A stretch of DNA of 64,000 nucleotides from Eubacteriales bacterium (GCA_045580325.1 JAZNNR010000005.1:3504-67503), one strand, 5' to 3'. Positions 3,283-13,342 are shown, numbered from the stretch's first letter. Made by a program: numbers and translations. The notes: generated from the letters alone by a model not told the origin.

Positions 3283-3894
3283 ATGGGAAAGGTTTACGGC
3301 TATGTACGCGTATCTAGCACCGATCAAAATGAAGATCGTCAGATGATTGCATTAAGCGAGGCTGGTGTTGATAGCAAAAATATATTTATAGACAAGCAAT
3401 CAGGAAAAGATTTTGAAAGACCTCGATACAAGAGAATGTTGAAAAAATTGAGGTCGGGTGATTTGCTTTACATACTGAGTATAGATCGTCTTGGACGTAA
3501 TTATGAAGAAATACAAAGGCAGTGGCGTGTACTTACAAAGGAGATCGGTGTAGATATATGTGTTATTGATATGCCTTTGCTTGATACCCGAAACGGCAAG
3601 GATTTAATGGGGACGTTCATTGCCGATCTTGTATTACAGATACTTTCTTTTGTTGCTCAAAACGAGCGAGAAAATATTAAAAAACGGCAAGCTCAAGGTA
3701 TTGCCGCTGCAAAAGCCAAAGGTGTAAAATTTGGAAGACCTGAAAAGGATGTTCCGGACAATTTTGAAAATATCATAAAAGAATGGGAAGAAAAAAGACT
3801 TCTGTTTTCAGAAGTCTTAAAAATATGTAATATGAGTGAAGCGACGTTTTATCGGAGATTGCGGGAATATAGATTGATTCACGGCGACAAATAA
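3283..3894 (+). CDS. small serine recombinase, Hin/Gin-type DNA invertase/resolvase
   Basis: N-terminal catalytic motif [15 protein letters not shown], central [10 protein letters not shown]-terminal HTH ([13 protein letters not shown]). 203 aa. GGAGG RBS. Confidence 0.9.
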
Positions 3895-3902
3895 CGTTAC
3901 AA

Positions 3903-3928
3903 CTATCATAAGCTACACCTTTTGATAG
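3903..3928. repeat. left hix-like recombination site (12-2-12): CTATCATAAGCT-AC-ACCTTTTGATAG
   Basis: Read directly. It is an inverted copy of 4050-4075 (23/26). Each site is itself an imperfect palindrome. It starts 8 nt after the recombinase stop. Confidence 0.75.
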
Positions 3929-3945
3929 GCACAACTATTTAAATT

Positions 3946-3974
3946 AGTATATCATAAATATGTAGAAAATTCAA
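3946..3974 (-). promoter_or_regulatory. sigmaA-type promoter inside the invertible segment, currently pointing toward the recombinase gene (OFF for the operon)
   Basis: The minus strand reads TTGAAT (3974-3969), a 17-nt spacer, then TGaTATACT (-10 at 3951-3946). Confidence 0.55.
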
Positions 3975-4049
3975 GTCATTTAGCGATTCAATTTGACAAA
4001 ATTTCGAAAAAAGTTACAGATTTTTCATCCAACGACTTAAACGAGACCA

Positions 4050-4075
4050 TTATCAAAAGGTGTACCTTATGATAA
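4050..4075. repeat. right hix-like recombination site: TTATCAAAAGGT-GT-ACCTTATGATAA
   Basis: Reverse complement of the left site, with the core dinucleotide inverted (GT versus AC). The half-site TTATCAAAA matches the Hin hix half-site TTATCAAAAACC as I recall it. Confidence 0.75.
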
Positions 4076-4134
4076 TGCTCTCACACCAAATGTTGGCCAA
4101 GGAATGATGGATTTGATAAAGGAGAAAATCGAAA

Positions 4135-10598: not shown

Positions 10599-10603
10599 TA
10601 ACG

Positions 10604-11284
10604 ATGAGAAAGAAAACAATATTATACCTTTTACTTGATTTGATATTTCTTGTGATTTTTAACTTGATATTTTTTATGGTGGGAGGGGCTGAACACCCAG
10701 CATCTGTGTGGCTTTCCTATGGTTTTATTCATTTTGCTTACATAATGCTAATCATAACACCTGTATTGACGAAAAAAAGCAGTAGCAAAGCGGTTTTGGG
10801 ATTCCCTTTATATACAGTTTCAGCCATATACTTTATTATTGAGTTTGTAGTGGGTTTGATTTTTATATTTATTAGAAGCGAATTCTACACGGTTGCATTA
10901 ATTGTTCAGGTTATATTGCTAGGCATATATGTACTGCTGCTTATTCCAAATCTTATTGCTAATGAGCAAACGGCAGAAAACATAGAACTACACGAAAGAG
11001 AAGTAGCATATATTAAAGAGGCTTCTTCAAGAGTAAGAAGTCTTGTTGACAAGATGAGCGACAAAGGCGCTAATAGGGCTATAGAAGCTGTTTACGACTT
11101 GCTTCATTCTAGTCCAACGCGCTCTCATTCATCTGTTGAGCTTCTCGAAGAAGATATCATTAATAAAGTGACGGAACTTGACGTAGCTGTTTGTTCAGAT
11201 GACATTTCAAAAGTTTTATCTACCTCAAAAGAACTGATTGCTATAGTTGAAGAGCGAAACAGAAAATTGAAACTCTATCAATAA
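10604..11284 (+). CDS. membrane protein with four predicted TM helices and a cytoplasmic helical C-terminal domain
   Basis: AAAGGAG lies 8 nt before ATG 10604. There are four hydrophobic stretches in the first 120 aa or so. Nearly abuts the upstream stop. Confidence 0.65.
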   Translation: MRKKTILYLLLDLIFLVIFNLIFFMVGGAEHPASVWLSYGFIHFAYIMLIITPVLTKKSSSKAVLGFPLYTVSAIYFIIEFVVGLIFIFIRSEFYTVALIVQVILLGIYVLLLIPNLIANEQTAENIELHEREVAYIKEASSRVRSLVDKMSDKGANRAIEAVYDLLHSSPTRSHSSVELLEEDIINKVTELDVAVCSDDISKVLSTSKELIAIVEERNRKLKLYQ

Positions 11285-11310
11285 AAAATATAAATTGGAG
11301 GACATAAAAA

Positions 11311-12246
11311 ATGATGCAAATTAAATGTGAAATGTGTGGAAGTTCAGATTTGGTGAAAGAGAATTCGCTTTATGTATGCAAGCACTGCGGCATGAAGTAC
11401 TCTCCCGAAGAAGCTAAAAAAATGATGGTGGAAATCGAGGGCGCTGTAAAAATAGACAATACCGAGGAAATTGCAAACCTTTATGTACTAGCAAAAAGAG
11501 CAAAAGAAAGTGAGAATTATAAAGAAGCACAAAATTATTATAGTCAAATATTGCTAAAAGCACCAACAGATTGGGAGGCTGCGTTTTATTCGCTGATTTT
11601 TGACGCTACTAACTGCGTAATTGCACAAATTGCAGAATCTTGCGATAAAATAACTTTGGGCATTCCTAGTGTTATTAAACTTGTAAAAAATACAGTTACA
11701 GACAGAGAAGAACTAAAACGCATTTGCAACGAAATGGCAAACGAAGTAAATTGGGCAGTTGGACTCTTTTTCGAAACTGCTCAAAAGCACTTTGATTATG
11801 ATTGGCATAAAAAAGAAGAGGCGGAGAGTAGTGCGGTTTATGCTGCGTACGAATTTGCTTATGAATTAAGAATGGCTTTCCCTAATAAGGAATATATTGA
11901 CTCGGAGATTTTATGTATAAAACAAGCTATGTTAATGCAAAGCCGAATGTATACTTGCGATGCTAAACACAGAGAAATATACATAAATAACGCTCGATAT
12001 CTCAAGCAATATTGTCCATCATATGAAGTACCTTTAATAGGAGGTGTCACCACACAACAAATCGAATCAGGGCTCTCGGTGGAAGAAATTGAAGCAGCAT
12101 ATATAAAAGACTGTAAAGAAATAGAAGAACAGACAAAAGCAGAGGACGAAAAATCAAAGAAAAAATTTTGGACTATTGTTATTGTGATTGCTGTAGTGAT
12201 GTACATTTTGGGTCGTTTAGGTATAGGACTGTTGTTGGGTTTTTAA
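11311..12246 (+). CDS. zinc-ribbon / TPR-like protein with a C-terminal TM anchor (paralogue 1)
   Basis: MMQIKCEMCGSS..VCKHCGMKYSPEEAKKMM. C-terminal FWTIVIVIAVVMYILGRLGIGLLLGF. GGAGG RBS. Confidence 0.7.
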   Translation: MMQIKCEMCGSSDLVKENSLYVCKHCGMKYSPEEAKKMMVEIEGAVKIDNTEEIANLYVLAKRAKESENYKEAQNYYSQILLKAPTDWEAAFYSLIFDATNCVIAQIAESCDKITLGIPSVIKLVKNTVTDREELKRICNEMANEVNWAVGLFFETAQKHFDYDWHKKEEAESSAVYAAYEFAYELRMAFPNKEYIDSEILCIKQAMLMQSRMYTCDAKHREIYINNARYLKQYCPSYEVPLIGGVTTQQIESGLSVEEIEAAYIKDCKEIEEQTKAEDEKSKKKFWTIVIVIAVVMYILGRLGIGLLLGF

Positions 12247-12312
12247 CTTTCCAAATACATAAATAATTTGAAAATAAAAATATGAAGTTACATAATTAAC
12301 TGGAGGTATAAA

Positions 12313-13284
12313 ATGATGCAAATTAAGTGCGAAATGTGTGGAAGTTCAAATATGGTGAAAGAGGATTCGCTTTATGTGTGCAAGCACTGCGGTATGAAGT
12401 ATTCTCCCGAAGAAGCAAAAAAAATGATGGTTGAAATCGAAGGCGCGGTAAAGATTGATGATACTGAAGAACTTTCAAATTTATATGTACTTGCAAGGCG
12501 TGCTAGAGATAACAAGGATACAGACGGAATTTTGAAGTATTATGGCGATATATTAAGAAAGGATCCAATGAGTTGGGAAGCTTCTCTTTTTCTGCTAGTT
12601 TATGATCATACCGAAAGAGTGTTGGCAGAAACTGAGCAATCATGTCAAAAATTTCTTAATGGAATCTCGTCTATTGTCGATTTGGTAAAAGATACCGTTG
12701 AAGATGACGAAGAGCGAAAAAATGCTTATAGCGAAGTATCACGATATACGGTATGGGCTACTGAAAATATTCTTTCCGTAACTCAAAAGTACGAGGATAT
12801 ATTTAAGGAAAGGCGCAGTCAGATATTAACTTACTTACACAATATTACATATACGTTTGCTAATCAAATGCAGAATAATTTCCCAAAAGGAGAATATGCT
12901 GACTCTATAATATTGTGTGCAAAACAAGGCGTGAAGCTTCAAAGTTTAAAAATGAACGCTTATGTACCACTAAACAATGAGGCAGAAAGAAAAACATATT
13001 TGGAATGGGTTAGATATATAAAACAATATGATCCACGATATTGGGCTCCTTCAATACCGGGAGTTACCTCACAACAAATAGAATCAGGACATACTATAGA
13101 AGAAATTGAAGAAGAAAATTTACTACAGGAGGTAAAAGAGCTAGAAGAAAACGAAAAAGCAGAAAAAAAAGCATCAGTTCTCGGATGCGTTGTGGTATTA
13201 ATCCTTTTGATATTAGCATTTTTCTTCGTGAAGTGGGCATTCGGTTGGATTTTGGGAGATATCGGAAAGTGGTTTGGGCTTTAA
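12313..13284 (+). CDS. zinc-ribbon / TPR-like protein with a C-terminal TM anchor (paralogue 2)
   Basis: The first 50 codons or so are nearly identical to 11311-11460. Same architecture as paralogue 1. GGAGG RBS. Confidence 0.7.
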   Translation: MMQIKCEMCGSSNMVKEDSLYVCKHCGMKYSPEEAKKMMVEIEGAVKIDDTEELSNLYVLARRARDNKDTDGILKYYGDILRKDPMSWEASLFLLVYDHTERVLAETEQSCQKFLNGISSIVDLVKDTVEDDEERKNAYSEVSRYTVWATENILSVTQKYEDIFKERRSQILTYLHNITYTFANQMQNNFPKGEYADSIILCAKQGVKLQSLKMNAYVPLNNEAERKTYLEWVRYIKQYDPRYWAPSIPGVTSQQIESGHTIEEIEEENLLQEVKELEENEKAEKKASVLGCVVVLILLILAFFFVKWAFGWILGDIGKWFGL

Positions 13285-13307
13285 TATTACATACTACCTA
13301 TAATGAA

Positions 13308-13342
13308 AGTGTCGAGGCAGATAGACTCCTCGGCACTTTTTA
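13308..13342 (+). terminator. intrinsic terminator ending the 7-gene operon
   Basis: AGTGTCGAGG...CCTCGGCACT stem followed by TTTTT. Confidence 0.6.

Follow-up and report, generated by a model that had tools for sequence, protein, structure and literature searches.

We analysed a 64,000-nt stretch of DNA from a Eubacteriales bacterium (GCA_045580325.1, JAZNNR010000005.1:3504-67503; hereafter the window, with positions counted from its first nucleotide), in which seven genes between 4135 and 13284 stand behind a DNA invertase and a short invertible element. Taking the window together with its relatives in other genomes, we read the region as a member of a conserved, horizontally mobile polymorphic-toxin system under a DNA-inversion switch, in which an ATPase would drive toxin export at an SPFH platform, a reading in which our confidence reaches about the halfway mark. 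The gene set is conserved and mobile, and it brings together an ATPase that joins a VirB4-like N-terminal domain (hereafter NTD) to a HerA-clade motor, a partner protein with exchangeable heads and co-varying small proteins, a co-inherited membrane module, and recombinase switches. A bolder proposal, advanced tentatively and short of probable, is that these loci represent a new class of secretion system, in which a motor derived from a DNA translocase would thread a DNA-mimicking leader through a membrane platform of SPFH scaffold, four-transmembrane protein and zinc-ribbon/TPR adaptors and so deliver interchangeable heads, carried on mobile elements in at least five phyla and switched by inversion.

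The features of the cassette, with the handles G1 to G7 for its seven genes, are as follows.

3283-3894, plus strand: serine recombinase (DNA invertase), 203 aa; Resolvase, PHROG 125 and NCBIfam matches
3904-4074, no strand: invertible promoter element; left inverted repeat (IRL) 3904-3927, right inverted repeat (IRR) 4051-4074, 123-nt core
4135-6819, plus strand: G1, motor ATPase, 894 aa; VirB4-like-fold NTD, HerA-clade P-loop, C-terminal helical domain
6850-8499, plus strand: G2, polymorphic toxin, 549 aa; N-terminal motif, polyanionic leader, C-terminal EsaD/YeeF-type DNase
8515-9696, plus strand: G3, soluble SPFH (Band_7_1) protein with SHOCT, 393 aa; from Pfam and hydropathy
9708-10598, plus strand: G4, soluble zinc-ribbon and helical (TPR-like) protein, 296 aa; N-terminal CxxC...CxxC
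10604-11284, plus strand: G5, four-transmembrane protein with a cytoplasmic helical C-terminal domain, 226 aa; from hydropathy
11311-12246, plus strand: G6, N-terminal zinc ribbon, helical region and C-terminal transmembrane anchor, 311 aa
12313-13284, plus strand: G7, paralog of G6 with the same architecture, 323 aa
13305-13345, plus strand: intrinsic terminator closing the operon; from hairpin folding energy against shuffles

An earlier note on this DNA had described seven tightly spaced genes on one strand in front of a single terminator, in an AT-rich cassette, and its gene-by-gene description was essentially correct apart from start positions and the paralogy of G4. All seven co-directional plus-strand open reading frames (ORFs) are present, separated by intergenic gaps of 3-66 nt and closed by a hairpin at 13305-13340 (-19.8 kcal/mol, z -5.1 against shuffles) that is followed by UUUUU, and GC content is 0.35-0.41 over 3-14 kb compared to 0.42-0.52 in the flanks. 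The most likely start of G2 is ATG 6850 rather than 6823, with a GGAGGA ribosome-binding site 8 nt upstream; this choice agrees with the relatives, which begin MGDEF or MDEEF, and the close relative at survey locus L093 is called at 549 aa. G5 probably starts at ATG 10604.

Motor ATPase, membrane module and their co-inheritance

The ATPase core bears out the HerA-type assignment of the earlier note, matching the Pfam DUF87/HerA central domain (E 1.4e-10). All PDB profile matches of G1 fall in the HerA family (4d2i, the best at E 4e-19, 8wiv, 8xau and 9c1m; E 1e-12 to 4e-19), the proteins closest to its core by sequence are HerA proteins, including those of the Sir2-HerA and DUF4297-HerA complexes, and its best NCBIfam match is CedD (E 1.3e-25). 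Walker A reads GSGK430T and Walker B reads LLEEAH at 645, and G424, G429, K430, E648 and H650 are invariant in a 30-sequence alignment of the family. To characterise the NTD (residues 1 to ~390, nt 4135-5310) we used AlphaFold 2 models with a predicted local distance difference test score of 87.6 for full-length G1 and 88.9 for residues 1-392. Foldseek placed TrwK/VirB4 of the R388 type IV secretion system (T4SS) at the top of the matches to the full model, with ~900 columns aligned, and the NTD alone retrieved 13 TrwK/VirB4 chains of that system (E 4e-8 to 2e-5) ahead of an unrelated next match at E 1.5e-3. With respect to the HAS-barrel, no HerA appeared among the 50 listed Foldseek matches of the NTD model; by sequence, G1 gave no Pfam CagE_TrbE_VirB or NCBIfam VirB4 match at threshold. 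As modelled, G1 is a VirB4-like NTD fused to a HerA-clade motor and not a classical HerA, with one motor domain and no transmembrane segment. The same layout of HerA-clade motor and VirB4-like NTD occurs in CedB and CedD, which drive DNA import together with multi-transmembrane partners at the membrane (PMC11868833). Four cysteines in the C-terminal domain of G1 (nt 6520-6730) are nearly invariant (C798, C804, C808 and C865), the first part of the cysteine pattern in the window being CxxCxxCxxxC with ferredoxin-like spacing, and they may form a metal or iron-sulphur site.

Relatives of this ATPase are numerous. In a word-indexed protein database we obtained 1,896 matches at E <= 1e-5, the listed top ones mostly from gut and rumen Clostridia metagenomes, and in a library of representatives at 50% identity the cutoff E < 1e-3 gave 5,207 matches, of which 1,708 had E < 1e-30; full-length relatives, with identities reaching as low as ~25-30%, account for more than 100 of the listed representatives. 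From the alignment of 30 diverse members we proceeded to 80 loci from species-representative genomes, cited here by number, whose ORFs we queried with two protein sets, that of the window and the accessory set of a related locus. The earlier note had treated the genes as one system, and the ATPase, acidic protein, SPFH and four-transmembrane genes indeed proved strongly co-conserved across these loci. Of the 21 loci that encode a full-length ATPase and have 5 kb or more on each side, 20 carried the SPFH gene and 19 the four-transmembrane gene, whereas neither occurred in any of the 29 control loci with ATPase-domain-only relatives (other DUF87 families). Two gene orders were observed: ATPase, acidic protein, SPFH, four-transmembrane protein; and, in a clade with 31-34% ATPase identity, SPFH, four-transmembrane protein, zinc-ribbon transmembrane protein, ATPase, acidic protein. 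In the well-flanked loci that have it, the homolog of G5 always lies next to the SPFH gene. Frequent accessory genes in the relatives encode a 197-aa zinc-ribbon/TPR protein, a 213-aa protein without family and a YidD-like membrane protein; the window lacks all three and carries G4, G6 and G7 in their place.

These counts bear directly on the alternative that two unrelated modules lie side by side, a Psp/YdjGHI-like membrane-stress module next to a separate ATPase-toxin pair, which we consider very improbable. The architecture of SPFH, transmembrane and zinc-ribbon transmembrane proteins does parallel YdjGHI, which is functional alone with PspA, and the ATPase and acidic protein of a Priestia plasmid occur without SPFH. 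However, the SPFH and four-transmembrane genes accompany the full-length ATPase across phyla and in two gene orders, the closely spaced window genes lie between one switch and one terminator, and no pspA gene is present. Chance adjacency of two modules is largely excluded by the co-occurrence data.

Within the membrane module, the earlier note's SPFH protein with SHOCT is well matched in G3, with Band_7_1 at E 7.7e-36, SHOCT just under its cutoff (26.5 bits versus 27) and a Gly/Ala/Pro-rich linker. G5 contains the four hydrophobic segments expected of the predicted four-transmembrane protein and has no Pfam, PDB or PADLOC match; PDB sequence and profile searches for the SPFH protein, the four-transmembrane family, the 213-aa family and G6 likewise gave nothing significant. 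Hydropathy places one C-terminal transmembrane segment in each of G6 and G7 and none in G3 or G4. The earlier note had grouped G4, G6 and G7 as three paralogous zinc-ribbon/TPR-like proteins. All three begin with a CxxC...CxxC zinc ribbon, and the paralogy is real for G6 and G7 (46% identity, E 1e-88), the 5' ends of whose genes share a 208-nt direct DNA repeat at 84% identity, but G4 is related to them by its zinc-ribbon/helical-repeat architecture only (pairwise E 0.007). G4 is also weakly similar to the 197-aa zinc-ribbon/TPR protein of the relatives (E 0.002) and has orthologs in L093, L024, L041 and L046, and homologs of G6 occur in L053 and L067. Soluble SPFH proteins of this kind have precedent: Bacillus subtilis YdjI is recruited to the membrane by the transmembrane proteins YdjG and YdjH (PMC8581546; also a 2026 preprint), and flotillin scaffolds promote assembly of the type VII secretion system (T7SS) in Staphylococcus aureus (PMC10765036).

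The system is found in Clostridia, Bacilli, Bacteroidales, Kiritimatiellia, Opitutaceae, Planctomycetaceae, Anaerolineales and Actinomycetota, the host phyla including Bacteroidota, Verrucomicrobiota and Planctomycetota, and among the cultured carriers are Modestobacter lapidis, Faecalicatena contorta (ET55), Paludibacter sp. 221 and Oscillospiraceae bacterium 21-37. Between Clostridia and Bacteroidota the ATPases are 60-70% identical, which indicates recent horizontal transfer. We rejected a phage origin, the ATPase NTD being absent from 50,697 phage records, and likewise the notion of a common plasmid gene, with the NTD in 1 of 72,556 plasmid records (Priestia megaterium); this rarity in phage and plasmid records helps explain why the system escaped study. 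The single plasmid-borne full-length relative (L095, plasmid pN447-3.1, 11737-18210) is 32% identical to the window ATPase and is followed by a 1,135-aa acidic repeat protein, while neither an SPFH nor a four-transmembrane gene lies within 12 kb; this may represent a minimal form of two genes in a host that can be cultivated.

The acidic partner and its exchangeable heads

The earlier note recognised in G2 an EsaD/YeeF-type nuclease with an acidic region, and the assignment stands, the nuclease forming a C-terminal head (nt 7987-8301) with a Pfam Endonuclea_NS_2 match at E 1.4e-20 and a PDB sequence match to the T7SS nuclease EssD at E 7e-16. Bacillus T7SS LXG toxins whose genes are followed by a YezG antitoxin gene have heads 43-46% identical to this one; compared with one such toxin domain (43% identity), G2 has its catalytic motif GGH422LIG intact. 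The protein opens with the motif MGDEFDTD..S.D and continues in a leader (residues 1-375) with 35% D/E and a net charge of -113; a central helical segment of ~100 residues (nt 7291-7572) is kept in L007, L015, L052 and L057. G2 has neither a signal peptide nor a transmembrane segment, and the toxin N-terminus has no Pfam match.

We then asked how general this partner is, defining a strongly acidic ORF as one with D+E >= 0.25 and K+R <= 0.10. Of 47 family loci, 31 had a strongly acidic ORF directly after the ATPase, as against none of 23 controls, and some of the non-acidic cases (e.g. L014, L018, L029 and L052) have a multi-transmembrane gene between the ATPase and the acidic gene. The acidic proteins range from 60 to 1,374 residues and start with the motif M-[GD]-[DE]-E-[FY]-x-x-S-[VI]-D-T-S, after which come repeats of Pro/Asp/Glu, for example IPEDVPED; the start motif extends to loci with 31-34% ATPase identity. 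An ORF-calling artefact was considered for the acidic region and is ruled out by its acidity in those 31 of 47 loci together with the common start motif. Pfam searches of 31 C-termini returned seven families, namely Gln_amidase (5), DUF6782, a metallopeptidase family (3), WHH (2), Colicin-DNase (2) and one each of TNT, SprT-like and Endonuclea_NS_2, the last in the window alone, so that the heads span DNases, an NADase, a deamidase and peptidases. The conserved N-terminal region with diverse C-terminal toxins that characterises polymorphic toxins (Zhang et al. 2012) is thus present.

A small non-acidic ORF of 60-165 aa usually follows the acidic gene in the relatives, and it varies together with the head. 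When pairs of loci were compared for similarity of the toxin C-terminus and of the small ORF, 16 were similar in both, 6 and 4 were discordant, and 235 were similar in neither. This co-variation does not follow ATPase relatedness: L020, with an ATPase 74% identical to that of the window, matches L055-L057 in both head and small ORF, and their ATPases are 32-34% identical, and two toxin/small-ORF pairs stand in L034 and in L027. On these sequence comparisons, the co-variation reads as the cassette-exchange signature of polymorphic toxin-immunity systems, and the small downstream genes of the relatives, which we call putative immunity genes, behave as an immunity gene would.

The window itself departs from this pattern. 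The earlier note reported no neighbouring immunity gene, which is true of the window and of its 98% relative L093 but atypical of the family: the co-varying small gene present in relatives is absent at both, the toxin leading directly to the SPFH gene, which in the window starts 15 nt after it. A divergent or novel immunity protein for the window DNase is possible, and self-protection in this lineage might come from cis-inhibition by the acidic leader, from tight OFF control or from an immunity protein not recognised as such.

Further membrane proteins stand beside the toxin gene in some relatives. In L014 (4743-5300), L018, L022, L029 and L052 (12674-15426), one or two multi-transmembrane proteins (145-615 aa, 5-7 hydrophobic segments) are inserted between ATPase and toxin, and are candidates for a channel component that the window lacks. 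In L054-L059 (e.g. L057, 15295-18668), the toxin/small-ORF pair is followed by two paralogous helical proteins of ~584 and 533 aa with an N-terminal coiled coil and a C-terminal two-transmembrane hairpin; Pfam gives only a weak DUF4191 match, and they may be further membrane components.

The nature of the ATPase and its partner invites comparison with HerA-based defence, an analogy that the earlier note drew with Sir2-HerA and DUF4297-HerA. In an abortive infection (Abi) or anti-phage system, the ATPase and membrane module would sense infection, such as phage DNA coming in at the membrane, and the ATPase would release or unfold the toxin-antitoxin pair or put real DNA in place of the DNA-mimicking leader, so that the toxin would kill or arrest the infected cell. 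Several observations favour this: the sequence of the ATPase core is closest to HerA, including the two defence proteins just named; the effector repertoire (DNases, TNT NADase) overlaps with defence effectors; on the mobile elements that carry the loci, a restriction or NACHT gene lies close by (HsdR for the window, NACHT for L001); an intracellular function suits a system whose form is unchanged between monoderm and diderm hosts; and a window toxin without an immunity gene is what one would expect of a regulated effector. Phase-variable defence systems are also known. However, PADLOC gives no system-level match and no credible match for G2-G7, the known HerA defence partners Sir2 and DUF4297 are absent, the NTD does not occur in the phage records and no link to phage counter-defence emerged. 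The analogy did not hold: G1 has a VirB4-type NTD in place of the HerA HAS-barrel, and its partner carries interchangeable heads with a co-varying small gene. Head and small-gene co-variation, duplicated pairs, an N-terminal motif and a long disordered leader are hallmarks of a trafficked polymorphic toxin, and the VirB4-type NTD with polymorphic heads points to toxin trafficking rather than to a HerA-activated Abi effector. We regard defence as the less probable explanation, and as unlikely.

A second alternative takes the leader at face value and supposes translocation of DNA, or of a polyanion, related to Ced or T4SS machines: the ATPase would pump DNA, the acidic protein would be a DNA-mimicking regulator, plug or pilot, and the heads would be secondary. 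It accords with the DNA-import ATPase CedD as the best family match, with the VirB4-like fold of the NTD and with the charge of the polyanionic leader (-113), as well as with members whose acidic proteins lack toxin heads and with the Priestia plasmid pair, which consists of ATPase and acidic repeat protein only. We nevertheless find it improbable, as the conserved set contains no relaxase, VirD4, VirB6, pilin or competence genes, no part of the locus varies more, or is more clearly subject to diversifying exchange, than the toxin/immunity-like cassettes, and deamidase, NADase and peptidase heads would be useless for DNA transport.

The inversion switch and the mobile setting

Expression of the polymorphic-toxin cassette appears to be controlled by DNA inversion. 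The invertase upstream (3283-3894) matches Pfam Resolvase (E 3.2e-29) and PHROG 125, DNA invertase (E 8.8e-54), and matches the NCBIfam Mpi-family invertase below cutoff (E 2.8e-12). It is followed by the 24-nt repeats IRL and IRR, which are 96% complementary with 123 nt between them, and whose half-sites (TATCAAAAGG) resemble what we take to be the half-sites of hix and gix. Within the invertible segment, the sole good promoter-like site (TTGAAT, 17 nt, TGnTATACT) reads from 3974 to 3946 on the minus strand; L094, a 98%-related locus in the same orientation, keeps its -10 and TG. Since this site, as assembled, faces away from the operon, the window switch appears to be in the OFF state. Inversion would place the promoter ~95 nt upstream of the first gene, firing into the operon; the ON form would have IRL joined to ATGGTCTCGTTTAAG, with segment 3928-4050 flipped. 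That the window segment inverts is a prediction from its architecture.

Recombinase switches recur in the relatives. In L020, a serine invertase 69% identical to that of the window precedes the operon and is followed by a 24-nt inverted-repeat pair around 202 bp. In other close relatives, a 376-aa tyrosine recombinase gene lies between perfect 25-nt inverted repeats just upstream of the operon, and this 1,394-bp recombinase cassette is opposite in L001 (6321-7764) and L005 (5657-7100), contigs from different samples, where the two cassettes are 100% identical as reverse complements and the flanks are identical. L007 and L008 carry the same recombinase gene in opposite orientations with inverted repeats on both sides, and in L047 and L025 a recombinase flanked by inverted repeats was seen in one orientation only. 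Thus a phase switch with the recombinase inside the invertible cassette lies upstream of related operons, both orientations being seen only for these tyrosine-recombinase switches, and phase variation is a trait of the family. The earlier note's claim of inversion-switched expression holds in the anatomy of the window switch and in the relatives' tyrosine-recombinase cassettes, but the window copy was seen in one orientation. An exact-match scan of the JGI metagenome collection found neither the ON junction nor the OFF junction used as control; this lineage is not represented there. The window's own ATPase has no record in the contig index.

The cassette is nested in a mobile element, as the earlier note had stated, with HsdR upstream and an iteron-like array, an AAA_25 gene, a tyrosine integrase and a tRNA-Ser downstream. 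The type I restriction R subunit, directly upstream of the cassette, is represented by its C-terminal 739 aa (24-2243), cut by the window start, with ResIII, Helicase_C and EcoEI_R_C domains and a PADLOC REase_I match at E 6e-106. The iteron-like array (13541-13997) lies in the AT-rich spacer that comes just before the AAA_25 (RepA/DnaB-like) gene at 14135-14971; in it, three repeats of 25 nt (GTAAATAAATTGTAAA...) are interspersed among five direct repeats of ~45 nt (AAAAAAGTCAGCAATAAAGGATGAGGG...), and it may be a replication origin of the island. The tyrosine integrase (16373-17557) adjoins tRNA-Ser(cga) (18387-18475, minus strand), a site that is probably one end of the integrative element carrying the cassette; no att repeat was found within 20 kb, and a 302-aa ORF that overlaps the tRNA (17628-18536, minus strand) is probably spurious. 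The element at L001 (942-5522 and 20483-22682) encodes a 1,526-aa NACHT protein upstream, while downstream come a relaxase, a protein like MobC and a polyvalent protein of >3,000 aa (MutS_I, SNF2 and helicase domains), cargo that is typical of conflict-rich mobilisable elements.

This setting raises the alternative that the genes serve the element itself, either as an addiction system in which toxin and immunity retain the island or as effectors linked to transfer, with the acidic proteins delivered during conjugation. The integrase beside tRNA-Ser in the window, the relaxase, MobC and polyvalent protein of L001 and the identities of 60-70% between ATPases of different phyla are in keeping with it, and the SprT-like and metallopeptidase heads presumably recall transferred anti-restriction proteins such as ArdC. 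Yet addiction needs no 900-aa motor, SPFH scaffold or several membrane proteins, no T4SS is within reach in the window island or in most related loci, and OFF-biased phase variation would defeat addiction. We consider this explanation, too, a doubtful one.

Proposed mechanism and relation to known systems

Under the reading we prefer, toxin export by an inversion-switched polymorphic-toxin system, the invertase would flip the 123-bp promoter element to ON and the operon would be transcribed. The four-transmembrane and zinc-ribbon transmembrane proteins would recruit the soluble SPFH protein, as YdjG and YdjH recruit YdjI, and a membrane platform would form, on which a hexameric ATPase could dock through its VirB4-like NTD. 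The ATPase would recognise the N-terminal motif of the toxin and spend ATP on threading the polyanionic, DNA-like leader into the membrane or across it; the C-terminal toxin (in the window an EsaD-type DNase) would thereby be exported or presented at the surface against competing bacteria, and threading would also strip any bound immunity protein. Docking at the platform, recognition of the N-terminus, leader threading, and export or surface display for antagonism are what we infer from the conserved parts.

A number of observations weigh against this reading. The likeness of the G1 NTD to VirB4 comes with modest TM-scores (0.36-0.46, TMq) and is accordingly taken as a fold-level resemblance and not as family membership, and the ATPase domain is closest in sequence to HerA, not to VirB4. 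Pfam revealed no domain that would mark one of the named secretion routes (Sec, T2, T5, T6, T7, PVC and so on), and Pfam, NCBIfam and PDB profile searches of the operon revealed no VirB6, VirB8, VirD4 or T7SS component; export is proposed from the architecture of the locus. The main weakness lies in the host range: with ATPases 60-70% identical, one gene set is shared by monoderm Clostridia and diderm Bacteroidota, Verrucomicrobiota and Planctomycetota (the isolate Paludibacter sp. 221 among the hosts), and no outer-membrane component is evident in the surveyed loci, which is awkward for cell-to-cell delivery. With regard to immunity, the window toxin has an intact catalytic motif and no adjacent immunity gene, a tblastn search of the 64-kb window for homologs of YezG, the antitoxin that accompanies the closest Bacillus LXG toxin, was negative, and 19 putative immunity proteins of the relatives matched no Pfam family and no known Imm family. 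Several acidic proteins, mostly from diderm hosts, are short, and neither a toxin nor an immunity partner can be recognised for them. Lastly, the ON orientation of the window switch was not found, the window, L093 and L094 all having the same orientation. The monoderm/diderm spread, the toxinless members and the missing window immunity gene keep three of the rival explanations alive.

Whichever reading applies, the gene set falls outside the named systems, as the earlier note had suspected, with no PADLOC system, no NCBIfam equivalog and no paper to match it. PADLOC 2.0 recognised G1 by its generic HerA/mad8 models alone; among G2-G7, five proteins scored nothing and G6 gave one Cas10 match (13 bits, E 0.006) that is not credible. 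Pfam, NCBIfam and PHROGs returned generic HerA, invertase, SPFH and SHOCT matches for the operon proteins and no system name, and a full-text literature search found no paper describing the combination of ATPase, toxin and SPFH. The survey of polymorphic toxin trafficking by Zhang et al. 2012 contains no combination of ATPase, leader and SPFH and no link to VirB4 or YidD, its sole mention of HerA being the T7SS YueA-like FtsK/HerA ATPase (PMC3482391).

If toxin export proves correct, these loci would add a new trafficking route to the few known for polymorphic toxins, and one common in gut and rumen anaerobes (Oscillospiraceae, Lachnospiraceae, Bacteroidales), which are difficult to cultivate and in which few antagonism systems have been characterised. 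It would also mean that an ATPase of the DNA-pump type has been repurposed for a polyanionic protein substrate, and would give SPFH and SHOCT a concrete role as the scaffold of a motor complex. Even as a defence system, with more than 100 clusters at 50% identity, it would be a large, conserved, phase-variable conflict system missed by current annotation and defence-finding tools. Through the leader motif, new toxin and immunity families can be sought in a simple way.

Comparison with individual known systems locates the cassette between several of them. With the HerA-effector systems it shares a HerA-like ATPase core with intact Walker A and B motifs and a neighbouring enzyme able to kill the cell; unlike them, it has a 390-aa VirB4-like NTD and no HAS-barrel, a partner that is not Sir2, DUF4297 or NurA, no PADLOC system, a polymorphic effector with immunity-like partners in relatives, and a co-conserved five-gene membrane module. 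The PspA-YdjGHI (SamGHI) system resembles it by architecture, in that a soluble SPFH protein without a transmembrane anchor lies beside transmembrane proteins, one with a zinc ribbon; B. subtilis YdjG starts with a CxxC motif (MIISYKCPNC, from a published primer), and the YdjG/H/I architecture used for the comparison is that of PMC8581546. In contrast, YdjGHI is a chromosomal stress response with no ATPase or toxin link, YdjI ends in a zinc-finger motif where G3 ends in SHOCT, Pfam and NCBIfam give no PspA family match among the operon proteins, and no pspA lies in or near the operon. The switch is like those of the Hin/Gin type in that a small serine invertase adjoins a short segment with 24-nt inverted repeats and a promoter-like site, but differs in that inversion was not observed for the window copy (L093, L094 and the JGI collection) and that related loci use a tyrosine recombinase inside a 1.4-kb invertible cassette.

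The motor can be set beside VirB4, CedB and CedD, with which it shares the two-domain layout and a core in the HerA/VirB4 branch, the modelled G1 NTD matching the NTDs of TrwK/VirB4 alone; unlike a VirB4-type T4SS, the conserved set is without VirB3, B6, B8, B10, D4, relaxase or pilus genes, and unlike both VirB4 and Ced systems its adjacent candidate substrate is a protein and not DNA. The secretion system of type VIIb (T7SSb; EssC with the LXG toxins EsaD/YeeF and immunity proteins EsaG/YezG) differs in its helical LXG domain, where the window leader is a disordered polyanion, and in the LXG or WXG100 proteins, the EssC architecture (FHA, two transmembrane segments, three ATPase domains) and the EsaA/EssA/EssB proteins that the window lacks; G1 is single-motor and VirB4-like, and the present system also occurs in diderm phyla. 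It is nonetheless alike in joining a swappable C-terminal toxin to an N-terminal trafficking region that is conserved, in the co-varying small downstream gene of the relatives that looks like an immunity gene, in the EsaD/YeeF family of the window DNase head, in a P-loop motor of the same superfamily encoded beside the toxin, and in the aid that flotillin/SPFH gives to T7SS assembly in S. aureus (PMC10765036). Collectively, the system is apparently undescribed and akin to the polymorphic toxin systems driven by FtsK/HerA-superfamily motors.

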